Source of the DNA: an uncultured Candidatus Binatia bacterium
GTDB taxonomy: Bacteria; Desulfobacterota; Binatia; HRBIN30; JACQVA1
Assembly: GCA_964648215.1 (NCBI GenBank)
Contig: CAZYMF010000005.1
Coordinates: 888 to 64,887, forward strand
Reading direction: 5' to 3'
DNA length: 64,000 nt
A program made the translations under genes and the position numbers. Every line of letters starts with the position of its first letter. Within the stretch, counting starts at the first letter, position 1. Under the pieces are notes generated by a model, which saw only the letters and a program-made list of their open reading frames with translations, did not search any database and was not told where the DNA came from. Positions 2,277-60,342 of this stretch are shown here, piece after piece.

Positions 2277-3941
2277 ATGTCTGAGGTCAAGAGCAATCCG
2301 GTCGATCTCGCCGGCGTGGAGCAGCTGGTGGCGACCACCGATAGCGTCGTCCGCGAAGCCCTGGAGGTCGCCGGCAAGCGCACCGCGGGCGGGAAGGGCA
2401 TCGACGACGAGCAGGTGCACTGCGAGCGCCTGGCGTACGCCGCCACCGAGGTCGCGGCGGCGCGTGATCTGCTGGCGTACGCCCAAGCGGCCGCGGCAGC
2501 GGGCCGTCGCGACGCGACCGTGGAAGCGATGGCGGCGGTGTTCGCCGCCGAGGTGGCGCAGCGGCTGAGCAATCAGATCGACGCGCATCTCGACGAGTTC
2601 GGTGTGAGCGAGGAGCGGCTGAACGGCACGCTGGCGGCCCCGGCAGTCAAAGCGCTGGTGCGGCGCGCCGCCGCCGACGACGCGGTGCGAGCCATCGGGC
2701 GGCACGTCATCGAGCAACGCGGCGTGAATCACTGCTGGATCGACAACGACCTGGCGGTGATGACGCGCGACTCGGTGCGGCAGTTCGCCGAGGCGGAAGT
2801 GGCCCCGATCGCCGAGCACATCCATCGCAGTGACGACTTGGTGCCGGACTCCCTGATCGACAAGATGGCCGAGCTCGGCTTCTTCGGCATGTCGGTTCCC
2901 GAGGAGTTCGGTGGTGGCGGCATGGGCAACCTGGCCATGATCCTCACCACCGAGGAGCTGTCGCGTTGCTCGCTGGCGGCGGCGGGAAGCCTGATCACGC
3001 GGCCGGAGATCCTGACCAAGGCGCTGCTCAAGGGCGGCACCGACGCGCAGAAGCAGGCGTGGCTGGCGCCGATTGCCGCCGGCAAGGTCATGGTGGGGAT
3101 TTCGGTCACCGAGCCGGACACCGGATCGGACGTGGCCTCGGTGAAGTGCCGCGCCGATGCCGGCGAGGCCGGGGGTAAGAAGGGGTACCTCCTCAACGGC
3201 GCCAAGGCGTGGTGCACGTTCGCCGGGCGCGCCAACGTCCTGGCATTGCTGGCGCGCACCGACCCCGATCCGAAGAAGGGCGCGCGCGGGCTCTCGCTGT
3301 TCATCGTCGAGAAGGACGTGTTTCCGGGCCATCAGTTCGAGATGAAACAGGCGACCGGCGGCGTTCTGGCGGGGAAGGCCGACGCCACGCCGGGGTATCG
3401 CGGCATGCATTCCTTCACCCTCAACTTCGACAACTACTTCGTCCCGGCGGAGAACCTGGTCGGCGAGCAGGGCGGGTTGAACAAGGGCTTCTACCTGCAG
3501 ATGAACGGGTTCGCGGCCGGGCGGCTGCAGACCGGCGGGCGTGCCACCGGGCTGGCTCAGGCTGCACTCGAACGGACGGCGGAGTACGCCAACGATCGCA
3601 AGCAGTTCGGCGAGCCGATCGGAAAGTTCCAGTTGACGCAGTACAAGCTCGGGCGCATGGCGACCCACATCATGGCCGCGCGCCAGCTCACCTACGCCGC
3701 CGCTCTGGCCATGGACAGGGACGAGTCGATCGCCCTCGAGCCGGCGATGGCCAAGCTGTTCGCCTCGGACGTGGCGGTGTGGACGACGCAGGAGGGGCAG
3801 CTCCTTCACGGCGGCTGGGGTTACGCCGAGGAGTTCGCCATTTCGCGCTACGTCGTCGACGCCCAGGTGTTGCCGATCTTCGAGGGGGTGAAGCCGATCC
3901 TCGAGCTGAAAGTGATCGCGCGCAACCTGCTCGGAGCGTGA
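2277..3941 (+). CDS. Acyl-CoA dehydrogenase, long form with an N-terminal extension of about 170 aa (methylsuccinyl-CoA dehydrogenase-like architecture)
   Basis: 554 aa. ACAD core motifs are GISVTEPDTGSDVASV, ANDRKQFGEPI and GGWGYAEEFAISRYVVDAQVLPIFEG. The core starts near aa 170 after an Ala-rich helical extension. Confidence 0.8.
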   Translation: MSEVKSNPVDLAGVEQLVATTDSVVREALEVAGKRTAGGKGIDDEQVHCERLAYAATEVAAARDLLAYAQAAAAAGRRDATVEAMAAVFAAEVAQRLSNQIDAHLDEFGVSEERLNGTLAAPAVKALVRRAAADDAVRAIGRHVIEQRGVNHCWIDNDLAVMTRDSVRQFAEAEVAPIAEHIHRSDDLVPDSLIDKMAELGFFGMSVPEEFGGGGMGNLAMILTTEELSRCSLAAAGSLITRPEILTKALLKGGTDAQKQAWLAPIAAGKVMVGISVTEPDTGSDVASVKCRADAGEAGGKKGYLLNGAKAWCTFAGRANVLALLARTDPDPKKGARGLSLFIVEKDVFPGHQFEMKQATGGVLAGKADATPGYRGMHSFTLNFDNYFVPAENLVGEQGGLNKGFYLQMNGFAAGRLQTGGRATGLAQAALERTAEYANDRKQFGEPIGKFQLTQYKLGRMATHIMAARQLTYAAALAMDRDESIALEPAMAKLFASDVAVWTTQEGQLLHGGWGYAEEFAISRYVVDAQVLPIFEGVKPILELKVIARNLLGA

Positions 3942-3963
3942 AGCCGAGCCGCCGAGGCCGGTC

Positions 3964-4200
3964 ATGGCCGTGGTCCGAGACGCGCAAGAGGTGCAGATGC
4001 TGATCGAGGCGCGGGCGCGCGCGCAGCAGATGCTCGACGAGCTGGTGCGACGCCAGGCCGAGATCGAGGCCGCCGCCGCGGATCTTTCCGAGGAGCAGCT
4101 TGCCGAAGGGCGGGCGGCATTCCAGAAGGCGACTGAATCGGCGCGGCGGGTGGTGGAGAATCTGGACCAGGCGCTGAAGCTGATCGCTCCGGTGCAGTAG
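3964..4200 (+). CDS. Small hypothetical coiled-coil protein
   Basis: 78-aa ORF with high third-position GC, 23 nt after the ACAD stop. No recognisable motif. Confidence 0.45.
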   Translation: MAVVRDAQEVQMLIEARARAQQMLDELVRRQAEIEAAAADLSEEQLAEGRAAFQKATESARRVVENLDQALKLIAPVQ

Positions 4201-4306
4201 CCGTCGAGCCCGCCGGGTCGGCTCGCGACGGCCTGCGGGCCGTCCGGCGCTTGCGCTAGCGCCGGCGCTCGCCGATACTCGCCGCAACCGCACGGAAGGA
4301 GACAGC

Positions 4307-4954
4307 ATGAAGCTCTACAACATGAACCTGAGCAACTTCGCGTCGAAGTGCCGCCTGGTGATTTACGAGAAAGGCGCGCCGGTGGAGATCGTGCCGATTC
4401 CCGGCGACGATCTGAAGTCGCCCGACTACCTCAAGATCTATCCCCTGGGAAAGACGCCGGCGCTGCAGGTCGACGGCCAGATCATCGGCGAATCCGAGGT
4501 CATCAACGAGTACCTCGAGGAGAAGTTCCCCGACAAGCCGCTGCTGCCCAAAGGGGCGGAGGATCGCGCCCGGGCCCGCTCGATCAGCCGCTTTCACGAC
4601 CTGTATCTGGAGCCGCCGCTGCGCGCGCTGTTCCCGCAGGTGAGCGCCAAGGAGAAGGATCAGAAGCTGATCGCGGAGAAGCTGGCCGAGATCAAGACGC
4701 GATTCGACCAGCTCGAGGGGATGCTGTCGAGCGGGCCGTACGCCGTCGGCGCCGCCTTCACGCTCGCCGACTGCGCCCTGGTGCCGACGATGTTCTTCGC
4801 CAACCTGCTGTTGCCGATGATGGGGGCGAGCTCTCCCACCGAGGGGCATCCCAAGGTCGCGGCGTGGTGGGCAAAGGCGCAGGAGCGCCCGTCGGTGCAG
4901 AAGGTGCTGGGCGAGCAGCAAGAGGCGCTGATGAAGATGCAGCAACAGCGCTGA
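4307..4954 (+). CDS. Glutathione S-transferase
   Basis: N-terminal thioredoxin-fold GST pattern ([39 protein letters not shown]) and a helical C-domain. SD GGAAGGAG upstream. Confidence 0.85.
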
Positions 4955-5009
4955 GGAGAAGCGGTTCCAACAGGTCGGGGCGGAGGCGCCGCCGCGGCGG
5001 GAGGACGTC

Positions 5010-6020
5010 ATGCGAGCGATGGTTCTGGAATCGCCGGCGCCCATCGATACGGCGCCGCTGCGCCTGTGCCAGCGCCCGGTGCCGGAGCCGGGCCCGGGTG
5101 AGCTGCGCATCCGGGTGAGAATCTGCGGCATCTGTCGCACCGACCTGCACGTGATCGAAGGCGAGCTGCCGCGGCAACGCCCGCAGCTCGTTCCCGGCCA
5201 CCAGGTAGTCGGCGTGGTCGATCGGCTGGGCGAAGGTGCCGATCGCTTCGCGGTCGGGATGCGCGTGGGCATCGCCTGGTTGCGGTCCACTTGCGGGCAA
5301 TGCGGGTACTGCCGCGCCGGGAAGGAAAATCTCTGTCAGCGGGCGCGCTTTACCGGCTATCACGAGGACGGCGGCTTCGCCGACTACGCGGTCGTGCCGC
5401 AGGCGTACGCGTATGCGCTGCCGGCGGCGATCGGCGACGCCGAGGCGTCGCCCCTGTTGTGTGCCGGTATCATCGGCTTCCGGGCGTTGCGCCGAGCGGA
5501 GATGACGCCCGGCTGCCGGCTGGGTCTGTACGGGTTCGGAGCCTCGGCGCACATCGCCATCCAGGTAGCACGCCATCTCGGCTGTCGGGTGTTCGTGATG
5601 ACCCGGGACGAGCGCCATCGCTCCCTGGCGCGAGAGCTGGGAGCGGAGTGGACCGGCGCGGCCGACGCTCCACCTCCGGAGAAGCTCGACAGCGCGGTCC
5701 TGTTTGCGCCGGCGGGGGAGCTGGTGCTCCCGGCGCTCGCAGCGCTCGATTACGGGGGCACGCTGGCACTGGCCGGCATCTATCTCACGGACATTCCCCG
5801 ACTGGAGTACGAGCGGCACCTGTTTCACGAGAAGAACCTGCGCAGCGTAACGGCCAACACACGGGAAGACGGCGAGGAGCTGCTGCGCCTCGCGGGCGAG
5901 ATTCCGATCCGGCCGCACACCACCAGCTTCCCCCTCGAGCAGGCCAACGAGGCGCTGCAGCGCCTCAAGCACGATGCCATCGCCGGGGCCGGGGTTCTGC
6001 AGGTGAGTGCGGCGGACTGA
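5010..6020 (+). CDS. Zinc-binding alcohol dehydrogenase family oxidoreductase
   Basis: [18 protein letters not shown] catalytic Zn motif, structural Zn Cys cluster [15 protein letters not shown], and [10 protein letters not shown] Rossmann motif. Confidence 0.85.
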
Positions 6021-6119
6021 CGGGGCGGGCGCTTGTCGCCGGCGAGCGGTTTGCTATAGGTCGCTTCGCCCGGCGTCGTGCAACCGGCGAGCGGCCGGAA
6101 AACACTGGAGGTGATTCCC

Positions 6120-6899
6120 ATGGGCTACGAGTTCGTGAAGTACGAGAAGGAAGGGCATCTGGCGCGTATCACCATCAACCGGCCCGAAGTAATGAATGCG
6201 TTGCACCCCCCGGCAAACAAGGAGCTGACGGCGATCTTCGACGATTTCGCCGAAGATCCCGAATGTTGGGTGGCGATCCTCACCGGAGCCGGAGAAAAGG
6301 CATTCTCCGCCGGCAACGACCTGAAGTATTCGGCCGAGCACGGCATGGGTGCGTCGGCCTTGGGCAAGGCCGGGTTTGGCGGCATCACCGCCCGCTTCGA
6401 CCTGTTCAAACCGGTGGTCGCGGCCGTCAACGGCTTCGCGCTCGGCGGCGGTTTCGAGATCGCCCTGGCCTGCGACATCATCGTCGCCGCCGAGCACGCG
6501 CGCTTCGGCCTGCCGGAGCCGAAGGTCGGCTTGGCCGCCCTCGCCGGCGGCATGCAACGTCTGCCGCGGCATGTGCCTCCCAAGATCGCCATGGGCATGA
6601 TGCTGACGGGGAAACACATCCTGGCGGACGAAGCGCACCGGCTCGGTATCGTCAACGAGGTGGTGCCGGGCAAGGACCTCGCGGCGACCGCCGAGCGATG
6701 GGCCAATGAGATCCTGGAGTGCTCGCCGACGTCGGTGCGGGCGACGAAGCAGGTGGCGTTGCAGAGCGAGGGGATGCCGCTGGAGCAGTCGCTGAGCAAA
6801 TCCTACCCACTGATCGGGGCCCTGTTCGGCTCCGAGGACATGATGGAAGGCGTGATGGCCTTTGCGCAAAAGCGCAAGCCGCAGTGGAAGGGAAAGTAG
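6120..6899 (+). CDS. Enoyl-CoA hydratase/isomerase (crotonase) family protein
   Basis: ARITINRPEVMNAL, GAGEKAFSAGNDLK and AVNGFALGGGFEIALACD. The ATG at 6120 is preferred over the track start 6078 because GGAGGTG lies just upstream. Confidence 0.85.
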   Translation: MGYEFVKYEKEGHLARITINRPEVMNALHPPANKELTAIFDDFAEDPECWVAILTGAGEKAFSAGNDLKYSAEHGMGASALGKAGFGGITARFDLFKPVVAAVNGFALGGGFEIALACDIIVAAEHARFGLPEPKVGLAALAGGMQRLPRHVPPKIAMGMMLTGKHILADEAHRLGIVNEVVPGKDLAATAERWANEILECSPTSVRATKQVALQSEGMPLEQSLSKSYPLIGALFGSEDMMEGVMAFAQKRKPQWKGK

Positions 6900-6929
6900 C
6901 CCCGGGCCACACCGGCGCGCCGAAGACAC

Positions 6930-6968
6930 AAAGAGCCCGGGGACAAAATCCCCGGGCTCTTTGCGTTT
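6930..6968. terminator. Rho-independent terminator-like hairpin between the crotonase gene and tRNA-Gly (usable from both strands)
   Basis: AAAGAGCCCGGGG-acaaaa-TCCCCGGGCTCTTT followed by GCGTTT. Confidence 0.6.
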
Positions 6969-6974
6969 GCCGAG

Positions 6975-7048
6975 AGCGGGTGACCGGGATCGAACCGGCG
7001 ACTTCAACCTTGGCAAGGTTGCGCTCTAGCCAGCTGAGCTACACCCGC
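6975..7048 (-). tRNA. tRNA-Gly (anticodon GCC)
   Basis: The reverse complement folds as a cloverleaf: acceptor GCGGGTG/CACCCGC, D arm GCTC/GAGC, anticodon stem CAACC/GGTTG with loop TTGCCAA, T loop TTCGATC. CCA is not encoded. Confidence 0.9.
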
Positions 7049-27675: not shown

Positions 27676-28728
27676 ATGCGTATCGTCGTTGCTCAGACGA
27701 GCTTCCTCGGCGACGTCGTGTTGAGCACGCCGGTCTTCGCCGCCTTGAAACGACATCGCCCCGATTGTCACGTTACGGCCTGGGTGCGGCCGGAGGCGGC
27801 GGCCGTGCTCGACGGGCATCCGGACGTCGACGCGGTTCTGGTGGACGACAAGCGTGGCGCCGACCGAGGTCCGCGAGGCCTGCTCCGCCTGCGCCGGCAA
27901 CTCGTTGCAGGCCGTTTCGATGTCGCTCTGGCGTTGCACAAGTCGCTGCGCACCGCGGTCCTGCTCGCCCTGGCGCGCGTGCCGCGCCGTATCGGCTTCC
28001 GCCAGAGCGCGGGGTGGTTCCTGTATCACCAGCTCGTCCGCCGCGATGCCTCCCTGCATGACGTGGAGCGCAATCTCTCGCTCGTGGCGGCCCTGGACAT
28101 CGATCCGCAGGCCGTGCCGCCGCGACTGCTCGTCGCTCCCAACCCCACGGCGGCGGGCCGGTTCGGGGCGCTCCTGCGCGAGCTCGGCGCGCCGGTGGAT
28201 CTCCCCTTCGTCGGCATGGCTCCGGGCTCGGTCTGGGCCACGAAGCGGTGGACGGTCGAGGGGTTCGCCGCGGTGGCGCGGGCGCTCGCGGCACAGGGCC
28301 AGCGGGTCCTCCTGCTCGGCGCGCCGAACGAACGCGCCATCGCCGACGAGGTTGAACGCCGGTGTGGTGGCGTTGCCATCAACGTCTGCGGCCGTACCGA
28401 CGTGGCCATGCTGGTGGCGGCGATCGACGCCTGCCATCTGCTGATCAGCAACGACAGCGCGCCGATGCACATCGCCGTCGCGCGCTCGGTCCCGGTAGTG
28501 GCCATCTTCGGGGCGACGCATCCGCGCCAGGGGTACGGGCCGTACAGCGACCGCGCCGTCGTCGTCCAACGCGAGCTCGACTGCCGTCCTTGTGGCCGGC
28601 ACGGGGGCGAGACGTGCCCGATCGGGACGCACGAGTGCATGCGCGCCATCGGCGCGGAGGACGTGCTCGCAGCGGCGCGACGGTTGCTGGCCGCGGAGCC
28701 GTCCTCATCGCGATCGGCGGCGTCGTGA
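27676..28728 (+). CDS. Glycosyltransferase family 9 (ADP-heptose:LPS heptosyltransferase)
   Basis: IVVAQTSFLGDVVLSTP N-terminus, KRW motif, SNDSAPMHIA. Confidence 0.85.
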   Translation: MRIVVAQTSFLGDVVLSTPVFAALKRHRPDCHVTAWVRPEAAAVLDGHPDVDAVLVDDKRGADRGPRGLLRLRRQLVAGRFDVALALHKSLRTAVLLALARVPRRIGFRQSAGWFLYHQLVRRDASLHDVERNLSLVAALDIDPQAVPPRLLVAPNPTAAGRFGALLRELGAPVDLPFVGMAPGSVWATKRWTVEGFAAVARALAAQGQRVLLLGAPNERAIADEVERRCGGVAINVCGRTDVAMLVAAIDACHLLISNDSAPMHIAVARSVPVVAIFGATHPRQGYGPYSDRAVVVQRELDCRPCGRHGGETCPIGTHECMRAIGAEDVLAAARRLLAAEPSSSRSAAS

Positions 28729-29486
28729 CCCGCGCCGATCCGCTCCCCGACGGGTTCGAGTGGTTTCACGCGGGCCGGTTGACCGTCGCCGTGCGGGCCG
28801 AGCTGCGGGCGGAGCTGGTGCCGCTGCTGCGCCAATGGAGCGGCGGGACGCTGCCACCCGGCCGGCCCCTCGCCGGTGGCCGTGGCGGCGTGACGGCGTA
28901 CGACGTGTCGCCTCGCTTGGCCGTCGTTGTGCGCCCGTACCGACGCGGGGGTTTCCTGCGGCACTTCAATCGAGAGGTGTATCTCGGCGGGTCACCGCGC
29001 CCGTTTCTCGAGCTGGTGGTGGGGGAAACGTTGCGTGCTCGAGGAGTACGCACGCTGGAGCTGCTGGCGGCGGGCGTGCGACGGTTCCCGTTCCTCGGCT
29101 ATCGCGGCGCCCTCATCAGCCGTGAGGTCCCCTCGGCCGTCAACCTCTGGCAATACATGCGGAACGCGCCGGCGGAGGAGCGAGTCAGGGTGTGCGAGCA
29201 GGCGGCGCGGGTGACGCGTGGGATGCACGACGCCGGAGTGATTCATCCGGACCTGAACCTACAGAACTTTCTGGTGCAGCGGGTGACGTCCGGTACGGAA
29301 GTACTGGTGATCGACTTCGACCGCGCACGTCTCTGCACGGTGCGTCCGCGGCAGCGCGAAGCGGCCGTGGCGCGTCTGCTCCGGTCGGTGCGACGGCTGG
29401 ATCCGGAGCGAGAAGTGGTCACGCAGAGGTGTGTCGCCGCCCTACAGGCGATTGGCGAGGCGAGGGAATGCACGTCGTACACGTGA
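28725..29486 (+). CDS. Lipopolysaccharide kinase (Kdo/WaaP family)
   Basis: RPYRRGG, HDAGVIHPDLNLQNFLV, VIDFDRA. GTG 28725 overlaps the GT9 stop (GTGA); the start is internal to track ORF 28362..29486. Confidence 0.75.
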   Translation: MTRADPLPDGFEWFHAGRLTVAVRAELRAELVPLLRQWSGGTLPPGRPLAGGRGGVTAYDVSPRLAVVVRPYRRGGFLRHFNREVYLGGSPRPFLELVVGETLRARGVRTLELLAAGVRRFPFLGYRGALISREVPSAVNLWQYMRNAPAEERVRVCEQAARVTRGMHDAGVIHPDLNLQNFLVQRVTSGTEVLVIDFDRARLCTVRPRQREAAVARLLRSVRRLDPEREVVTQRCVAALQAIGEARECTSYT

Positions 29487-48637: not shown

Positions 48638-51451
48638 TTAGGAATGGACCCGGAATGTGGCGGCTGAGCTTGGCCCTTGGCCTTCGATGGCCACGGCGCA
48701 GAGCTTGAACTCGGGGATTTTTCCGTACGGATCGAGGGCATCGATGGTCAGGACGTTGGCGGCCGCCTCGCGAAAGTGGAAGGGGATGAAGACACTGCCC
48801 GGGGCCATCCGCGGCTCGGCCCGGACCTTGATCTCGATGGCGCCGCGGCGGGAACGGATGCGGGCGAAGTCGCCGGTGACCAGGCCGAGCGCCTCCAGAT
48901 CGTCGGGGTGGAGCTCGGCGAAAGCCTCGGGTTCGAGCGCGTCGAGCGCCCGCGAGCGCCGGGTCATGGTCCCGGTGTGCCAGTGCTCGAGCAGCCGGCC
49001 GGTGTTGAGAACGAAGGGGAACTCGGTATCGGGCAGCTCCGTGGCGGGGACGAACTCGGCGGCGACGAACTTGCCCCGCCCGCGGGGAAAGCCGTCGGTG
49101 AACAGGACCGAGGTGCCCGGGTGCGTCGGATCCGGGCACGGCCAGAGCAGGCCGGTGTCGCCGAGGCGGTCGTAGCTGAGGCCGGCATAGCTCGGCGTCA
49201 GTGAGGCCATCTCCCGGAAGATCGCCTCGACGTGGTCGTAGTGCATGGGGTAGCCCATGCGGGTGGCGAGCTCGCACAGAACCTGCCAGTCGGTGCGCGC
49301 CTGACCCGGCGGCTCGATCGCCTTGCGCCCGAGCTGCACCCGGCGGTCGGTGTTGGTGTAGGTCCCGTCCTTCTCCGCAAAGCTGGTCGCGGGCAGGATC
49401 ACGTCGGCAAACTCGGCGGTCTCGGTGAGAAAGATGTCCTGCACCACCAGAAAATCGAGAGCCGCCAGAGCCTGGCGCACCTTGTTGGTGTTCGGGTCGC
49501 TGAGGAAGGGGTTCTCGCCCATCATCATCATGCCGCGGATCCGACCGGCGAGCGCAGCGGTCATGATCTCGACCACGGTGAGACCGGGGTCAGGGTCGAG
49601 CGCTACACCCCACGCCTGCTCGAAACGCTGGCGCACGGCGGGGTCCTTGACCGGCTGATAGTCGGTGTAGACCATCGGAATCAGGCCGACATCGGAGGCC
49701 CCCTGCACGTTGTTCTGGCCGCGCAGCGGGTGGAGGCCGGTGCCGGGGCGGCCGATGTTGCCGGTCATCAGCGCCAGGGAGATCAGGCAGCGCGCATTGT
49801 CGGTACCCGTCGTGTGCTGCGAGATGCCCATGCCCCAGAAGATCATCGCGGCGCGGGCACGGCCGTAGCAGTGGGCAACGGTCTCGATGAGCGCGCGCGG
49901 CACGCCGGTGATGCCCTCCACCAGCTCGGGGGGATAGCGACCGGCCGTCTTGCGGACGTCGGCGAAATTCTCCGTGCGCTTGCGAATGAAGCTCTCGTCG
50001 ATCAGTCCGTCGCGGAGGATGACGTGCATCAAGCCGTTGAGCAGGGCCACGTCGGTACCGGGCTTGAAGCGCACGTAGTGGTCGGCGTGATCCGCCAGCA
50101 GAGAACGCCGCGGATCGATCACGATCAGAGTCGTACCTTTCTTGGCCGCCTCCTTGATGAAGGTGGCCGCCACCGGGTGATTCTCGGCGGCATTGGAGCC
50201 GATGACGACAGCGACGTCGGCCAGAGCGACGTCGGCGAAGACGTTGGAGACGGCGCCGGAGCCGATGGTCTCCATCAGGGCCGCCACCGACGAGGCGTGA
50301 CACAACCGGGTGCAGTGGTCGACGTTGTTGGTGCCGAACACCGCGCGCACCAGCTTCTGAAAGACGTAGTTGTCCTCGTTGGAGCACTTGGCCGAGCCGA
50401 AACCGGCGAGCGCCGAGCCGCCGTGCGTGTCGCGGATGGCCCGCAGGCGCGCCGCCGCCAGGTCGAGGGCTTCGTCCCAGCTGGCCTCGCGGAAGGCGGG
50501 AAGCACGTGGCTGTAGTCGACCAGACCGCCGGGCCGGCGGCGGCGCTCGTCGCCACGCACCTCCGGTGACAACGGGCCCTTGGGATATCGCTCCGGGCGG
50601 CGGATGAGGGGGACGGTCAAGCGCTGCGGGTGGTGCGCGTAGTCGAAGCCGTAGCGACCCTTGACGCACAGCCGGCCCTGGCTGACCGGGCTTTCCGCGC
50701 GCCCGGAGACGCGTTCGATGCGCCCGTCGCGGACATGGTAGCGCACGGCGCAGCCGACGCCGCAGTACGGGCAGACCGAGGCGACCCGGCGCTCGCTGCT
50801 CGGGGTGGAGACCGCGACCGTGACCGGCTTGTGCACCAGCGCCCCGGTCGGACAGGCGGCGGCGCACTCGCCGCAAGAAACGCAGGTGGACTCGCCCATG
50901 GGGCGGCCGAGATCGAAGGCGATACGAGCATCGAAGCCCTTGCCGGCCCGGCCGATGACCTCGTTGGACTGGACCTCGTCGCAGGCGCGCACGCAGCGGT
51001 CGCAGAGAATGCAGGCGCGATGATCGACGGCGATGACGGGAGACGAGAGGTCGGCCCAGTCGTGCCAGGCACGGGCGCCGAAGCGGGACGTCGTGATGCC
51101 CAGCGCGCGCGCCAGCGCTTCGAGCTCGCAGCCGGTGTCGGCCTCGCGCGCGCAGGGAGCGGGGTGGTCCGCGAGAAGCAGCTCGACCAGCATTCGGCGG
51201 GCGCTGGTCACGGCCGCGGTCGCGGTGTGGACGACCATCCCGTCCTCGACGGTCCGGACGCAGGCGGCCTGCAACGTGCGCGCACCCTCCACCGCGACGG
51301 CGCAGACGCGGCAGACGCCGACCGCGCGCAGGTCGGGACGATGACAGAGAACGGGGATGTCGATGCCGGCTTGCTGCGCCGCGGACCAAATCGTCGTTCC
51401 GGCCGTCGTCTCGACGCGACGACCGTCGATGGTCAGGGTCAAGGGGTTCAT
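48638..51451 (-). CDS. Formate dehydrogenase alpha subunit, NAD-type (NuoG-like Fe-S N-terminus plus molybdopterin domain), Cys variant
   Basis: Start MNPLTLTIDGRRV at 51451. 2Fe-2S and 4Fe-4S Cys clusters (CRVCAV, CILCDRCVRAC, CVSCGECAAACP, CPYCGVGC). VDHCTRLCHASSVAAL aligns with the CARVUHGPSVAGL region of FdhF, with Cys in place of Sec. Confidence 0.9.
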   Translation of the reverse strand: MNPLTLTIDGRRVETTAGTTIWSAAQQAGIDIPVLCHRPDLRAVGVCRVCAVAVEGARTLQAACVRTVEDGMVVHTATAAVTSARRMLVELLLADHPAPCAREADTGCELEALARALGITTSRFGARAWHDWADLSSPVIAVDHRACILCDRCVRACDEVQSNEVIGRAGKGFDARIAFDLGRPMGESTCVSCGECAAACPTGALVHKPVTVAVSTPSSERRVASVCPYCGVGCAVRYHVRDGRIERVSGRAESPVSQGRLCVKGRYGFDYAHHPQRLTVPLIRRPERYPKGPLSPEVRGDERRRRPGGLVDYSHVLPAFREASWDEALDLAAARLRAIRDTHGGSALAGFGSAKCSNEDNYVFQKLVRAVFGTNNVDHCTRLCHASSVAALMETIGSGAVSNVFADVALADVAVVIGSNAAENHPVAATFIKEAAKKGTTLIVIDPRRSLLADHADHYVRFKPGTDVALLNGLMHVILRDGLIDESFIRKRTENFADVRKTAGRYPPELVEGITGVPRALIETVAHCYGRARAAMIFWGMGISQHTTGTDNARCLISLALMTGNIGRPGTGLHPLRGQNNVQGASDVGLIPMVYTDYQPVKDPAVRQRFEQAWGVALDPDPGLTVVEIMTAALAGRIRGMMMMGENPFLSDPNTNKVRQALAALDFLVVQDIFLTETAEFADVILPATSFAEKDGTYTNTDRRVQLGRKAIEPPGQARTDWQVLCELATRMGYPMHYDHVEAIFREMASLTPSYAGLSYDRLGDTGLLWPCPDPTHPGTSVLFTDGFPRGRGKFVAAEFVPATELPDTEFPFVLNTGRLLEHWHTGTMTRRSRALDALEPEAFAELHPDDLEALGLVTGDFARIRSRRGAIEIKVRAEPRMAPGSVFIPFHFREAAANVLTIDALDPYGKIPEFKLCAVAIEGQGPSSAATFRVHS

Positions 51452-53079
51452 CGGCAGACGCCCTCGGGGCAGCGCCCGTGCTGGTGCGCCTCGACCTCCG
51501 CGGGAAAGTGCTGCAGCACCGACGTCAGCGGATTCGGTGCGGCCTGGCCGAGGCCGCAGATGGAAGTTGCGGCCATCGTGCCGGCGAGCTCCTCGATCGC
51601 GGCGAGGGCGGAGGCGGAGGCCCGGCGGCTTGCCAGCTGCTCGGTGAGGTGCACCAGCTTGTCCGAGCCGACACGGCAGGGCACGCACTTGCCGCACGAC
51701 TCGTTGCGAAAGAAGCGGAGCACGTTCAGCGCCGCGTCGACCATGCAGGTGCCTTCCGCCAGAACCACGACCGCCCCGGAGCCGAGCATCGAGCCGGCCG
51801 CGGCCAGCGCGCTGAAGTCGAGGCCGACGTCCACCTGCGCCGCCGGAAGAAAGCCGGAGGAGGCGCCGCCGGGAGCGAACGCCTTCAGCCGCCGGCCGCC
51901 GCTGACGCCACCGCCGTGTTGCTCGATGAGAACACGGGCAGGTAGGCCGAGGGGAATTTCGTAAACGCCTGGGCGTTCGATGTCCCCGCTGATTGCGATC
52001 AGCTTCCTTCCCGGGATGCCGTTGTGGCCGCCGGTAGCGAACCAGGCGCCGCCGCGCGCCAGGATGGCCGGGACCCAGGCCAGCGTTTCTACGTTGTTGA
52101 TCAGCGTGGGTTGCCCCCAGAGCCCGCACGTGCCCGGAAACGGCGGGCGGTTGCGCGGCTCGGCGCGTTTTCCCTCCATGGCCTCGAGGAGAGCGGTCTC
52201 CTCGCCGCAGATGTAGCCGCCGGGGCTGTCGAAGATCTCGACGTCGACGCCATACGACGAGCCGAAGACCGAGCTTCCCATGGCGCCGTGCGCCCGCGCC
52301 GCCTCGAGCGCCCGTGTCAACACCCGGCGCTGGGCCTCGTACTCGTGACGCAAGAACACGTAGGCCTGGCGAGCCCCGACGGTGAGCGCGGCGATGACCA
52401 GGCCTTCCACCACCAGGTCGGAGAAGCGCTCGAGCAAGAAACGGTCCTTGAACGTGCCGGGCTCGCTCTCGTCGGCGTTGCAGACGACGAACTTCTCCGC
52501 CGCGGGCGCGCGGCGCACGAGGTCCCATTTCTTCGCGGTCGGGAAACCGGCGCCGCCGTAGCCGCGCAGGTGGCTCTGCTCCAGCTCGCGCACGACCCAG
52601 CCCGCATCCGCGGCGGCGACGACGCGCCGTAGCGACGCATAGGGTACGGCGTGTCTGGGGTCGACGTGGTCGGCGTGGAAGTAGCGGGTCGGCGCCTCGC
52701 TCACCGCGGGAGATTCGGCCGGGTCGATCGTCCCTGCGGCACCGAGGTCCCCCAAGATGCGGCCGGCGACACTCGCCGCGCCGGGCCGGTCACACAGCCC
52801 CAGGCACGAGCAGGGCCGGACCTGCCGGCCAGCGGCCGCGAGGGTTTCCAGCAGGCGCGGTGCCGCCAGGTGGCAGCTGAGATCGGTGCACACGCGAATC
52901 TCACCCGCGACCTCGGCGCGCAGGTGCGGGTAGAAGGTGCTCAGCCCGTGCAGGCGATAGAGGGGGGTCTGCGTGTCGAGCGAGAGTCGCTGGAGTGCCT
53001 CCGGCGGCTGATTCTTGGCGGCGCGTAGCTTCTCGATGAGTTGGGCATCGCTCTCTCGCCGCTTGCGCACGAGAGGCAT
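51448..53079 (-). CDS. Formate dehydrogenase beta subunit: NuoE-like 2Fe-2S domain fused to NuoF-like FMN/NAD(H) domain
   Basis: CTDLSCHL...CSCLGLCD (NuoE-type), then GYGGAGFPTAKKW, VVCNADESEPGTFKDR and ESCGKCVPCR. 4-nt overlap with the alpha gene. The start is MPLVRKRR at 53079. Confidence 0.85.
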   Translation of the reverse strand: MPLVRKRRESDAQLIEKLRAAKNQPPEALQRLSLDTQTPLYRLHGLSTFYPHLRAEVAGEIRVCTDLSCHLAAPRLLETLAAAGRQVRPCSCLGLCDRPGAASVAGRILGDLGAAGTIDPAESPAVSEAPTRYFHADHVDPRHAVPYASLRRVVAAADAGWVVRELEQSHLRGYGGAGFPTAKKWDLVRRAPAAEKFVVCNADESEPGTFKDRFLLERFSDLVVEGLVIAALTVGARQAYVFLRHEYEAQRRVLTRALEAARAHGAMGSSVFGSSYGVDVEIFDSPGGYICGEETALLEAMEGKRAEPRNRPPFPGTCGLWGQPTLINNVETLAWVPAILARGGAWFATGGHNGIPGRKLIAISGDIERPGVYEIPLGLPARVLIEQHGGGVSGGRRLKAFAPGGASSGFLPAAQVDVGLDFSALAAAGSMLGSGAVVVLAEGTCMVDAALNVLRFFRNESCGKCVPCRVGSDKLVHLTEQLASRRASASALAAIEELAGTMAATSICGLGQAAPNPLTSVLQHFPAEVEAHQHGRCPEGVCR

Positions 53080-55909: not shown

Positions 55910-56152
55910 TCAGGGCTCTTTGTGGAGCAGGCCGTTTCCCCCAGGGAGATCCGCGGGGATCGATGCCTGCGCGGCCAGGACCTGCATCGCCTTACGCGCC
56001 AAGCGGCTCGGCTCGATGTGGCCGTTCTCCCAGCGGTTCACCGTGGAAACCGTAACCCCAATGGCGTGCGCGAACTCCTCCTGCGTCATGTTCAGGCGGC
56101 GTCGCAGCAACGCGACTGGTGCTCCGTTGTGCTGCTTTTCATCGAATGACAT
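55910..56152 (-). CDS. XRE-family helix-turn-helix transcriptional regulator
   Basis: LRRRLNMTQEEFAHAIGVTVSTVNRWENG. GGAGGAGG lies upstream of ATG 56152. This is the last 80 aa of track ORF 55910..57145. Confidence 0.8.
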   Translation of the reverse strand: MSFDEKQHNGAPVALLRRRLNMTQEEFAHAIGVTVSTVNRWENGHIEPSRLARKAMQVLAAQASIPADLPGGNGLLHKEP

Positions 56153-56412: not shown

Positions 56413-56865
56413 CTACTCCAGAAAAGGAGGCGTCTGTGCCTCGGGGGCGGATGCGGCTTTGGGCGGCGCGGCCGGCTTGCTCCGCAGACGCTTTTCCAGT
56501 TGCGCGATGCGCCGATTGAGCGCCCGCACCTCCTTGCGGCTGGCCACGTCGAGGCGGCGCAGAAGCGGCTCGACGCGTTTGCTGAGCTGGTCCTCGACGC
56601 CGGAAAGCAGCTTTTGTGCTCGGGCTTCCACGTCCTTTTGCGCCTTTTGGGCGCGCTTTTCGATGTCCTTGCGGAGACGCCTGCCCTCGCGGACGAGACG
56701 ATCCAGCGCCTGCTGCTGATCTCGCGAGATGAGATTCGAGGCTTGCTTGCGCGTGCGGGTGAGCACGCGCTCGGCATCGCGCTGCAACTCGCGCATGTTC
56801 TGGCGCAGCCGTGCCAGCGGCTCTGTAGCTTTCTTGGGAGCGGGTCGCTTTGCCTTCTTTGCCAT
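56413..56865 (-). CDS. Phasin-like (PHA granule-associated protein family-like) basic coiled-coil protein
   Basis: 150 aa, start MAKKAKRPAPKK at 56865 with AAGGAGG upstream. The C-terminal LDVASRKEVRALNRRIAQLEKRL matches the hallmark segment of PHA granule-associated proteins as I remember it. Confidence 0.6.
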   Translation of the reverse strand: MAKKAKRPAPKKATEPLARLRQNMRELQRDAERVLTRTRKQASNLISRDQQQALDRLVREGRRLRKDIEKRAQKAQKDVEARAQKLLSGVEDQLSKRVEPLLRRLDVASRKEVRALNRRIAQLEKRLRSKPAAPPKAASAPEAQTPPFLE

Positions 56866-56907
56866 GGGCGCCTCCTTTGCGCAGCGTTCTGGAGGCCCTT
56901 GTAGCGC

Positions 56908-59900
56908 GTGCCGAGCAAGGATGGCAAGGGTGTCCGGACCGCCGCCGTCGGCGCCGCCCTTGTTGACGTGGGCGGCCGTCCTCGGCATAGTTGCGCCTCT
57001 TCTGCTGTGCCGAGCGGAGCCGCATATCGACGCTGGCTGCGAGGTGCAGCAAGCGTAACAATCGTGGTGGGGTGCGTAGTCCGCGTTGCCGCCGCCGTAC
57101 CGCTGTCCGCGGCCGGAGATGCCGATTGCGACGGCGCGGTGACATTCGCCGATGTAGCGCACCTGCAGGCCGAGCTCGTCGACGGCGACGGCAATCTCGC
57201 CACGTCGGTCGACGGGGGCTCCGTCTTCAGCTGCAGTGGGGCGGATGCCAACGGTGACGGCGTGGTCACGGCGGCCGACGTATCTGCCATGCTCGCTTTG
57301 ATTCCGACGCCACGCCAGTCCCCGACGCCCACCAGCGCTACGCCGGCGGCGACACCGACGCCGCCAGCAGGGCCGATCCTGACGTTCTTCGGCCTCGCCG
57401 CGGCTGATGGCTCGATCCTCACGCCGGTTGGCTCCGCCAACGGGATCCCCATCTACCAGCGCATCGTCGGGGTGGGATTCAAGCTGGTCGTGGAAGGGGC
57501 GCCCGGAAGCGACGGCGCGGTGATTGGCACGAAGACCTCGAACTTCAAACCCGACGACCCCAGCGCGCGCCCGGATTTGCAGGTTCTGCTCTCGAGCCCG
57601 CTCGGCGATGGCAGCCCGGTGGTTTGCCAGGACGGCATCCCGGCGGAGCCGCCGACGTTCGGCCCCTCGCAGGAGATCGCCAATGCCTTGAACGACTTCG
57701 GCTGCCGATCGACCGTCGTGGGCAACCCCAACGCTGCGTGCACGCTGAACCAGTTCGGCAACCCGTCCTTCCGTTCGTCGGATACACGGACGCAGTTCTG
57801 CGTGCTGGTGGCCACGGAGCTGCAGTTTCCCGACGGCGATACCCTGGTGACCGCCCGCCTGCGGGATGCCGACGGAGAGGTCGGATCGACGGGCCAGATC
57901 ATCGTCAGGATCGGCGACAATCCCTTGCCGACCAGCACGCCAACCATCCCGCCCCCGACGGCCACCCGCACCCACACCCGGACGCCGACACCGACGCGCA
58001 GCCCGTCTCCGGAGCCCACGTCGACCAGGGTGCCAACGGCGACGCGGACTCCATCGCCGACGAGAACCGCAACGCCGTCGGCGAGCCCGACCGCGACGCG
58101 CGCGGTGCCGACCGCGACACGAACCGCGACCTCGAGCCCGACGCGCACGCCGACGCGCACGGTCACGGTTACCGGAACCGTTCCGGCAACGCCGACGGCG
58201 ACGACAACACGCACCTTCTCCCCCACGATGACGGCCACGCCGAGCTCCACCCGGACGGCGACGCCGACCCGGACAGCGACGCCGACCCGGACGGCGACAT
58301 CGACGGCCTCTCCCACCGGGACGCGACCGCCCACGGAAACACCGACCGCCACGCCTTCTCCCACACGGACATTCACCCGCAGCGCGACAGCCACGACGAC
58401 CCGCACGCCGACGCGCACGGCTACGGCCACACGGACCGCGACGCCGACACGGACTCCTACTCCGACGCGGACGCCGACGCCTAGCCTGACCATCACCGGG
58501 ACGCGACCGCCGACCAGCACCGCGACGATCACGCCGACGGCAACGCCAACGCCGAGCACGACACCGACCAGTACCCCGAGCAGGACCGATACGAGGACGG
58601 CAACGCCAACCCACACGGGAACACCTACGCGGACCAACACCCCGGTCCCTTCCGCGACATCGAGCCGTACGGCGACGGCAAGCTGGACACTCACGCCCAC
58701 CCGGACCGGGACACCGACGCGCACCCCCACCGGCACGTTGCCTCCCACCTCTACGCCGACGCGCACGGGGACACCGACCGAAACCCCGACGCCGACGCGC
58801 GTCCCGACCTATACCCCAATGGCAACCGCCACGGGTACCGTCACGGCCACGCCGACAAAAACCCGGACCCCGACGCGCACCGCGACCTTCACCCGATCGC
58901 CGACGCCGACGCGGACGCGATTTCCCACCTACACGGCGACACCGACCCGGACGGCGACGCCCTCGGCGACGCCCAGCAAGACCCGCACGCCGACACGCAC
59001 GCCGACGGCGACCACCACGCCGAGCTCAACACCGACGTCGACCCCGACCGCCACCCCGACGAGGACGCCGACGCCGACCGTGACCAGGACACCGTCGCCG
59101 ACGCAAACGCCGACACGGACGGCGACGATCACCCCGTCACCGACGAACACGCTTTCGCCGACACCGACGCTGAGCCCGACGCCGAGCGCGACTCCCACGC
59201 CGACCCCAAGCTTGACCCCGACGCGGACGCCGACGGTGACGCGGACGCCGACGTTGACGCCGACCGTCACGGCGACTCGCACGCCGTCCTTCACGCGCAC
59301 GCCGACGCGGACGGCGACACCGACAGCGACACCGACGATCACCAACACGCCCACCATCACCGCGACGCCGACGATCACCGGCACGCCGACCCCGACACCG
59401 TTTCCCGGCCCCTCCATCACTTTCTTCGGTGCCATCAATTCCGATGGCACGGTGCCGACGCCGACGGCGTACACCGCGGGGGGAATCCCAATCTACGAGC
59501 GGCCGCTCGGGTTCAACTTCACCATCGTCGCCGAAGGCAAGCCCGGAGGCAGTCGCCGGCCGGTGGGATCGCAGTCGTTCAACTGGGATCCCGCGGATCC
59601 CGCCGCGCGTCCGGACCTGCAGATGCTGGTAGCGCGGCCTCTCGGCGACGGCAGCACGACCGTGTGCGACAACACCTTCCCGATGATTGGCGGTGTGCCC
59701 GCCGTCGACCCGCCGGACTACTCGCTCACGCAGCCGATCTCCGACGCGATCAACGACCTCGGGTGCCGGTTCGTCAACGGCTCGGGGCTGACTCAGGGGC
59801 GCCCGTCCCCCGCCGACGCGTGCACAGTCGGCAGCGACGGCGACTTCCACTTCGTCGGCTCGGGAACGACAATGCAGTTCTGCGGTACCATGGGTCGGCT

Positions 59901-60006
59901 CTTCGACTTCCCCATGGGCGACACGCTGGTCACGGTCAAGCTGCGCGACACCGGCAACAACTTGAGCAAGACCGCGCACATGATCGTGCGGGTAACGGCG
60001 CCCTAG
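56908..60006 (+). CDS. Large extracytoplasmic protein: dockerin-like repeats, unknown domain copy A, a Thr/Pro/Arg-rich linker of about 495 aa, unknown domain copy B
   Basis: Single open frame of 1032 aa. The start is GTG 56908 or GTG 57007; the latter gives [23 protein letters not shown], a lipoprotein-like signal. See findings for the domain comparison. Confidence 0.8.
57922..59406 (+). repeat. Coding low-complexity quasi-tandem repeat (ACN-CCN-ACN-CGN-ACN-GCN type) encoding the TPTRTATPT linker
   Basis: About 1.5 kb of near-periodic ACG/CCG/CGC/GCG codons. It produces the mirror-image VGVRVGV ORFs on the opposite strand. Confidence 0.9.
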
Positions 60007-60021: not shown

Positions 60022-60342
60022 TTACTTCGGGGGCAGGGTGGGCGAGGGACGGGGAGTACCAGGCCCGGCTGGTTCGGACTGCAACTGCTGCGTGGTCTGG
60101 TCCCGGCGCAGCAGCTCGTTTTCTGCCGCCAACCGCTCCTCTTCCTTGGTGAGCTGTTGCACGCGCCCTTCGAGATCCCGCTTGGCCGCCTGCAGCGTCG
60201 CGACCTCGCTCTCAACGCCGCGCAGGCGCGTCTCGGCCTGCCGTAGTCGCTCGGCATGCCGTCCCCACAGAAAGTAGCCGCCGCCGACACCGGCCGCCGC
60301 CGCAAAGACGACGGCCAGCAGAGCTGCCAGCCAACGGCTCAC
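60022..60342 (-). CDS. Membrane-anchored coiled-coil protein (hypothetical)
   Basis: N-terminal TM segment WLAALLAVVFAAAAGVGGGYFLW, then heptad-rich LRQAETRLRGVESEVATLQAAKRDLEGRVQQL, and a Pro-rich tail. Confidence 0.55.
   Translation of the reverse strand: MSRWLAALLAVVFAAAAGVGGGYFLWGRHAERLRQAETRLRGVESEVATLQAAKRDLEGRVQQLTKEEERLAAENELLRRDQTTQQLQSEPAGPGTPRPSPTLPPK

Follow-up and report, generated by a model that had tools for sequence, protein, structure and literature searches.

Cellulosomal scaffoldins of the CipA/ScaA type are non-catalytic secreted proteins that consist of repeated beta-sandwich modules joined by Pro/Thr linkers and accompanied by one dockerin-type module. Type I dockerins (PF00404) contain two tandem Ca loops (DxDxDG....D), each with a helix, and are attached to the remainder of the protein by Pro/Thr linkers. 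The PT-box linkers ((PT)n) of secreted glycoside hydrolases such as CenA and Cex of Cellulomonas fimi are low-complexity sequences of alternating Thr and Pro, presumed to form an extended flexible chain between folded modules. All of these features, including the approximate size of the dockerin, appear to recur in the product of a single gene in a 64,000-nucleotide stretch of DNA from an uncultured Candidatus Binatia bacterium (contig CAZYMF010000005.1, positions 888 to 64,887; hereafter the window). The gene lies in an open reading frame (ORF) of 1032 codons, without interruption, at 56908..60006 (+), and encodes a predicted signal peptide, a dockerin-like module, one copy of a four-Cys domain (copy A), a Thr-rich spacer and a second copy of the same domain (copy B). 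It came to attention through an original prediction, made from the DNA letters alone, that read the ORF as an envelope protein. The product is best described as a modular secreted binding protein of a familiar kind, built on a new lineage-specific domain family.

The four-Cys domain and its family

Copy A (A-type, 184 amino acids (aa)) occupies 57370..57921 (+), residues 155-338 of the 1032-codon frame; copy B (B-type, 199 aa) occupies 59407..60003 (+), residues 834-1032, and ends at the C-terminus. The two are 43% identical across 196 columns (BLASTP, E 1e-49), and a tblastn search of the whole window with either copy finds these two and no third. Four Cys residues stand in register (C240, C266, C278 and C298 in copy A; C920, C953, C972 and C992 in copy B) and are invariant both in a 70-sequence alignment of the family and in the two subfamilies formed by 175 copies from 78 genomic loci. 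Several charged or polar residues are near-invariant (in domain numbering E43, D70, D88, N116, D117, R121, D172 and D181). D88 and R121, together with F122, are conserved in at least 99% of B-type copies as against 51-75% of A-type copies.

Sequence searches place the domain in no named family. Neither copy has a match in Pfam-A (2025) at E<=1, in NCBIfam 20.0 at E<=0.1 or among PDB sequences at E<=10, and none of the 70 family members has a Pfam match over the domain. The sole PDB match of the family profile, the Mycobacterium tuberculosis lipoprotein LpqN (E 0.002), was rejected as an artefact because it aligns lipobox-like and Thr/Pro linker columns, covers just the first part of the domain and agrees poorly.

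The domain is nonetheless confidently modelled. With the 70-sequence alignment, AlphaFold2 (AF2) gives copy B a mean predicted local distance difference test score (pLDDT) of 97.2 and a predicted template modelling score (pTM) of 0.92: eight strands, three long loops and one helix (residues 109-119), which carries the invariant N116-D117 just ahead of C120. Copy A, modelled together with the dockerin-like module on a shallower alignment, has a pLDDT of 95-98 and a pTM of 0.70. Foldseek searches of the PDB with both models return nothing at E<1e-3. The best neighbours reach template modelling (TM) scores of 0.2-0.38 on the query at 8-15% identity and are generic Ig-like or E-set sandwiches (the N-terminal domain of glycoside hydrolase family 123 (GH123), the p53 core, RhoGDI, NPC2 and the Siglec-like regions of SrpA-type adhesins), while a fold search of BFVD gives generic FN3 or Ig-like matches only. 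The models describe a compact beta-sandwich that has neither a close solved relative nor a curated family: the novelty is at the level of the family, and the fold class is that of an ordinary Ig-like beta-sandwich.

A word-indexed search with copy B returned 76 proteins, all annotated as hypothetical and none with Pfam domains. HMMER, run exhaustively on 1.84 billion cluster representatives, gave 406 clusters (at 50% identity) at E<=1e-30; the count at 1e-3 is far larger and is inflated by the dockerin and Thr/Pro columns of the profile. When one genome per GTDB species was scanned, 123 relatives came to light, and the 78 loci that were kept come overwhelmingly from Candidatus Binatia, which the NCBI taxonomy places within the candidate phylum Binatota; several metagenome-assembled genomes (MAGs) hold three to five loci each. 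Loci labelled Deltaproteobacteria, Myxococcales or Margulisiibacteriota, among others, share synteny with the rest and are probably Binatia too, filed under names that are outdated or wrong. The family is thus a large one, with next to no members outside Binatia.

To define its architectures, every stop-to-stop ORF of the 78 loci was translated and searched with a hidden Markov model of the domain. Among 97 domain-bearing ORFs, 59 carry two copies, nine carry three, one carries four and 28 carry a single copy; in 79 of the 97 the final copy ends no more than five aa from the stop codon. Average-linkage clustering of the 175 copies yields an A-type cluster of 53, each the first copy of a multi-copy protein, and a B-type cluster that holds all other positions, the single-copy proteins and the first copies of short-spacer lipoproteins. 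The A/B duplication is therefore old, with the A-type always first and the order fixed. The arrangement dockerin-A-spacer-B is thus not peculiar to the window gene, but is the standard layout of a large Binatia family.

Family members place the domain in several settings. As a rule a dockerin-like module bracketed by Cys, and then a short linker of Thr and Pro, come ahead of it, and proteins of the single-copy type have a signal peptide, then a dockerin-like module, then the domain. It is also found behind FG-GAP repeats (P0132), behind beta-helix/PMP repeats (P0186), behind ELWxxDGT repeats (P0142; TIGR04534, E 1e-164) and in arrays of up to five copies (P0077). It occurs in one to five copies, and these partners are typical of surface or adhesin-like proteins; the neighbourhoods of the paralogs contain no enzyme or transporter that would name a function. 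Judged from sequence, partners and paralog contexts together point to the envelope or surface.

Three further arrangements were seen among the paralogs. A Cys-rich N-terminal domain of ∼365 aa with no Pfam match recurs ahead of a cassette of dockerin-like module and copy B in proteins of ∼650-950 aa (among them P0146, P0148, P0161 and P0162) and is duplicated in P0162. At six loci (L036, L040, L045, L062, L067 and L075; about 2300-7000 in each) a three-copy dockerin-A-B-B protein of ∼800-950 aa is followed in tandem by a two-copy B-B lipoprotein with a fixed inter-copy linker of 20 aa. Finally, two Binatia genomes (L080, 6327-8894; L081, 6447-8966) share a cluster of three genes, for a Yip1-domain membrane protein, a protein of 362-364 aa with a weak CarboxypepD_reg match, and a protein in which a signal peptide and a dockerin-like module precede copy B. 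Adjacent genes touch or overlap, and the cluster is therefore probably an operon.

The original prediction had proposed that the two copies are paralogous, that their four Cys are conserved in register and that the domain falls in no named family, and in each respect it is borne out. The novelty also survives the structural searches it called for, with confident models and no close neighbour in the PDB or BFVD, and its question about taxonomic range and domain partners is answered by a distribution almost wholly within Candidatus Binatia and by the dockerin-like, FG-GAP, beta-helix/PMP and ELWxxDGT companions.

Dockerin-like module, spacer and export signal

The dockerin-like module spans 57115..57303 (+) (residues 70-132). 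It consists of two 12-residue EF-hand-type loops, each with a helix after it (residues 13-23 and 55-64 of the modelled fragment, right behind the loops), with a DGDG...DGG insert between them, and it is bracketed by C74 and C109, a pair conserved in orthologs. The Dockerin_1 profile (PF00404) matches residues 69-128 with E 1.1e-4 and 22.8 bits, against a gathering cut-off of 22.9 bits; a precomputed PF00404 match exists in two homologs. Going by its loops and helices the module appears dockerin-like, narrowly under the Pfam threshold. A regular-expression search finds at least one such loop in 50 of the 66 multi-copy family ORFs, and two in 30. A Pro/Thr linker of 22 aa (57304..57369 (+)) joins the module to copy A.

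A second dockerin-like match in the window, at 28689-28937 (+) (tblastn, E 8e-4), is spurious: it has no Ca loops and lies in frame inside an ORF at 28362-29486, which, from its sequence only, reads as a lipopolysaccharide (LPS)-kinase-like protein. Literature searches brought up no relevant work that connects dockerin or cohesin with Binatia or Binatota.

The spacer between the copies (57922..59406 (+), about 495 aa) is a degenerate PT-box of the form (Thr-X)n, as defined by composition, autocorrelation and codons. It contains 208 T, 101 P, 47 R, 42 A and 39 S with just four acidic residues, for a net charge of about +45. Thr occupies alternate positions and X is P, R, A or S: 167 of the 208 Thr are followed by Thr at +2, up to lag 12 the Thr autocorrelation flips between about -0.65 and +0.65, and TPT (51), TRT (36) and TAT (32) are the most frequent tripeptides. 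In the DNA, TRF reports weak arrays only (period 12-42 nt, 61-93% matches). The Thr codons are mixed (ACG 107, ACC 67, ACA 29) in about the proportions found in the folded domains, which argues for upkeep of the pattern in the protein and against a recent expansion of the DNA. Along the spacer the coding strand contains 45% C and 6% T, hence a local skew anomaly and the failure of gene finders described below.

The residues at X are one-step codon neighbours (P, CCG; R, CGG; A, GCG; S, TCG), and the equally accessible L and Q are rare, which suggests to us selection for a soluble, non-acidic, extended chain. Long spacers across the family have a mean composition of T 0.35, P 0.18 and R 0.10 and a net charge of +8.8 per 100 aa. 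Ortholog length, conserved composition, Thr periodicity and mixed codons together suggest that the long spacer is a selected feature.

Two in-frame GTG codons could begin the gene, and that at 57007 is the more likely start, giving a revised coding sequence of 57007..60006 (+), 999 aa plus stop. Starting at 56908 would leave just 42 nt for two divergent promoters; moreover, the closest ortholog, that of a Candidatus Binatia MAG (L003), shares the upstream DNA in different frames, so that the stretch is evidently non-coding. In L003 a GTG stands at the same offset, four codons ahead of a shared AAYRRWL. The GTG at 57007 is without a Shine-Dalgarno sequence. Directly 5′ of it is a motif, GGCATA(3 nt)GCGCCTCTT (window 56985-57006; L003 3470-3489), whose DNA is kept between the two genomes although the reading frame differs; it could be the promoter -10 element of a short-leader transcript, or a regulatory site.

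Read from GTG 57007, the N-terminus has the makings of a signal peptide (57007..57096 (+), predicted from hydropathy and from the N-terminus of L003): R8, R9 and R12 precede a hydrophobic core with an 11-residue Kyte-Doolittle mean of up to 2.5, and a likely AxA cleavage site lies ahead of VP (AAA|VP, residues 63/64 in the 1032-aa numbering). The cleavage region aligns residue for residue with ...VVGTTSAGYA|VPRSSMPGDADCDG of L003, and other orthologs have textbook Sec signal peptides. A lipoprotein reading of the VVGC in the window protein was rejected: the aligned position in L003 is VVGT and the lipobox-like motif is not conserved, true lipoboxes (LAGCGG, VVGCGG, ITGCDD) being restricted to the short-spacer B-B paralogs. 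A twin-Arg motif is common to the window and L003 (YRRWL) and recurs in L013 and L025 (SRRTIC/SRRMVC), while several orthologs are without RR. The mature protein would comprise ∼969 aa with 10 Cys in five conserved pairs. An extracytoplasmic location appears well supported by the hydrophobic N-terminal signal, by the Sec signals or lipoboxes of orthologs and paralogs, and by the invariant paired Cys.

The extracytoplasmic location put forward in the original prediction is thereby strengthened, and three of its other readings are refined. The ORF exists as described, although its start is doubtful: the gene more likely begins at GTG 57007, the upstream region not being conserved as protein. The spacer is indeed some 495 aa of T, P, R, A and S, and what was called T/P/R-rich proves to be a strict two-residue (Thr-X)n repeat. 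The N-terminal dockerin-like repeats stand, with the qualification that Dockerin_1 (E 1.1e-4) falls 0.1 bit under its cut-off and with the addition of their own Cys pair, C74/C109.

The locus, its orthologs and its gene calls

Positional orthologs of the window gene are present in at least 22 genomes and keep the order dockerin-A-spacer-B. In the syntenic loci the spacer between A and B is always 318-711 aa long, as against 19-243 aa in non-syntenic two-copy paralogs, and that of the window, 496 aa by this count, is the fourth longest of 80. Neighbouring proteins of the window and L003 are 57-65% identical, which identifies the window as Binatia DNA. Upstream, across a divergent intergenic region (56866..57006) that contains the GGCATA...GCGCCTCTT motif, lies a phasin-like gene (56413-56865 (-), 150 aa; PF05597, E 1.5e-9) whose ATG at 56865 stands behind a perfect AAGGAGG Shine-Dalgarno sequence; it occupies the same divergent position in eight related loci. 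Beyond it is a gene for an unusually well conserved XRE-type helix-turn-helix (HTH) protein (55910-56152 (-), 80 aa), 94% identical to that of L003 and 72-84% identical to those of 21 other Binatia loci. In all 22 loci this gene is found upstream of the long-spacer A-B gene; its product could be a regulator of the latter, or the gene may simply be a conserved neighbour.

Directly downstream, a convergent gene (60022-60342 (-)), conserved in five loci, encodes a protein of 106 aa whose N-terminal membrane anchor is accompanied by a coiled coil and a Pro-rich tail; further downstream are genes for a pseudouridine synthase of the RluA type (about 15 loci) and an aminotransferase of class V (at least nine loci). 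Taken together, synteny with the HTH, RluA and aminotransferase genes extends over at least 20 loci. At a greater distance, the window encodes a 1296-aa fused molybdopterin oxidoreductase (48638-52528 (-)) with N-terminal 2Fe-2S and 4Fe-4S ferredoxin-like domains, resembling the alpha subunit of formate-dehydrogenase/NuoG-type enzymes. Molybdopterin enzymes also occur near the domain paralogs of L080 and L081, which is probably coincidence.

Public gene calls miss most of the gene. In L001, and in the window's own contig (L083), the annotation contains only a copy-B fragment of 184-198 aa, together with antisense ORFs over the spacer (L001, 6678-7984 (-); L083, 638-1144 (-)). The window contains comparable long antisense ORFs (57453-58766 (-) and 56413-58614 (-)), rich in R, V and G, across the (ACG-CCG)n spacer, and many overlapping ORFs elsewhere, as expected at 66-71% GC. 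These very features would favour the view that the long ORF is artefactual, either open by chance in high-GC DNA or created by a misassembly at the repeat that fuses two genes. We regard this as very improbable. The same uninterrupted layout is found in 59 two-copy ORFs from independent assemblies, the length of the spacer is within the range of its orthologs, the Thr periodicity stays in frame through 495 codons, and both flanking domains lie in one frame and give models with pLDDT of at least 95. The long ORF is a real, conserved gene.

Proposed role and comparison with known systems

We lean, by a little over even odds, towards an exported, non-enzymatic modular protein whose sandwich domains bind and whose spacer acts as a flexible cationic tether, so that ligands are bridged or presented over tens of nanometres. 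A Sec-type signal peptide would be removed to leave a mature protein composed, in order, of a dockerin-like Ca-loop module with one disulfide, an A-type copy with two disulfides, the polycationic spacer and a B-type copy. The sandwich modules would bind a ligand or partner, a role that is usual for such sandwiches in secreted proteins and is suggested by their fold class, their multiplicity, their adhesin-like partners and the lack of any enzyme signature. With the spacer as a long flexible tether, the protein could bridge two sites in the envelope or extracellular matrix; alternatively, the spacer could present copy B far from an anchored N-terminal end. The dockerin-like module may supply Ca-dependent attachment.

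Several observations temper this proposal. The binding and tethering role is one that we infer, and the likeness to binding domains is at the level of fold class only (TM <=0.38). The conserved E43, D70, D88, D117, R121, D172 and D181 might just as well belong to a catalytic or metal site. For the export signal the evidence is hydropathy and inspection by eye rather than a trained predictor, and a Sec-type signal alone is compatible with either periplasm or surface in a diderm. The model of dockerin and copy A (pTM 0.70) neither supports nor excludes packing of the two modules, and the neighbouring phasin, HTH, RluA and aminotransferase genes point to no pathway.

The conserved acidic and basic residues lead directly to one rival, in which the domain acts outside the cytoplasm as a small enzyme or metal-binding module, two such catalytic or chelating units being carried by the protein on a tether. 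Here the near-invariance of N116 as well as of the seven residues just named is relevant, as is the fact that D88 and R121 are invariant in B-type copies and relaxed in A-type copies, a pattern known from pairs of active and degenerate paralogs. However, no fold similarity to enzyme active-site domains is detectable (the GH123 matches, at TM about 0.3, are on its non-catalytic N-terminal sandwich), there are no Pfam or NCBIfam matches, and arrays of as many as five tandem copies are characteristic of binding modules; an enzymatic or chelating role thus seems unlikely. Similarly doubtful is a tether that spans the periplasm or spaces the envelope, with its ends at different layers and the length of the spacer setting or sensing the distance between them. 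Such a device fits a single-copy positional ortholog with an always long spacer (318-711 aa) and a Sec-type signal with no recognisable outer-membrane or surface sorting signal in the window protein; by polymer scaling, reasoned and not computed, a disordered chain of ∼500 residues would measure a few tens of nanometres, which is periplasm-like. Yet a more than two-fold variation in length among orthologs would make a poor ruler, the window protein carries no membrane anchor (its VVGC, though lipobox-like, is not conserved), and no envelope-biogenesis genes are nearby.

The remaining rival takes the dockerin-like module at its word. If the four-Cys domain were the functional counterpart of cohesin and bound the accompanying dockerin-like modules, the proteins could assemble head to tail or as a network, and the window protein would be a two-socket scaffoldin with its own plug. 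A dockerin-like module does accompany the domain in most members (50 of 66 multi-copy ORFs, and the single-copy type too), the layout of repeated sandwich modules, PT linkers and one dockerin is scaffoldin-like, and no Pfam cohesin was found in any protein scanned, cohesins elsewhere in these genomes not having been searched for. On the other side, similarity to cohesin is absent from both sequence and profile (hhalign of the family profile against a CipA cohesin gives a probability of 0.2%), cohesins are absent from the 50 best Foldseek matches in the PDB both for copy B and for dockerin with copy A, and the joint model gives no sign of a defined interface (pTM 0.70). Furthermore, the lipoprotein B-B paralogs have no dockerin-like module at all, and in cellulosomes plug and socket are usually on different proteins. 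We consider a cohesin counterpart improbable. Its strongest form, to which we give slightly less credit, makes the domain a non-homologous cohesin analogue through which the dockerin-plus-domain proteins, dozens per lineage, self-assemble into an extracellular or envelope scaffold; the window protein would be its long-range cross-linker, with a spacer contour length of up to about 150 nm. If true, plug-and-socket assembly would have evolved a second time, independently, and in a diderm phylum without a cultured member.

The findings have implications beyond this locus. A domain family of more than 400 clusters at 50% identity, confidently foldable, without an entry in Pfam, NCBIfam or the PDB and found almost solely in Binatia, marks lineage-specific envelope or surface biology of a widespread uncultured phylum of soil and sediment. 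It also exposes a problem of annotation: callers systematically reduce these genes to their last 184-198 aa, so that the dockerin-A-spacer-B layout, with a spacer of 300-700 aa, is hidden in public protein sets. Should the domain prove to be a dockerin partner, it would explain non-cellulosomal dockerins in at least one phylum; should it not, it is one more secreted binding module.

Compared with described systems, each part of the protein is familiar in kind and distinct in detail. With the E-set and Ig-like sandwiches (RhoGDI, the NPC2/ML domain, the Siglec-like regions of SrpA-type adhesins, the GH123 N-domain) the four-Cys domain shares the beta-sandwich class, but it exceeds them in size (184-199 aa) and has three long loops, one helix and two invariant predicted disulfides not found there; these neighbours are ligand-binding modules, and for the window domain we infer no more than a like role. 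The N-terminal module differs from type I dockerins in scoring 0.1 bit under the threshold, in its 20-aa DGDG...DGG insert and conserved Cys pair, in its N-terminal position within a protein that has no carbohydrate-active enzyme (CAZyme) module, and in belonging to an organism with no known cohesin system (cohesins elsewhere in these genomes were not searched for). Where PT-box linkers of the CenA/Cex type are about 20-60 aa long, the spacer has 495 aa; about half of its X residues are R, A or S, it carries a charge of about +9 per 100 aa with almost no acidic residues, and a length of at least 318 aa is kept in orthologs. Finally, in contrast to the cellulosomal scaffoldins, the protein has only two sandwich modules, which are not cohesins by profile or fold search, and no carbohydrate-binding (CBM) or surface-layer homology (SLH) module, while the linker that joins them is 10-20 times longer than is typical and polycationic.

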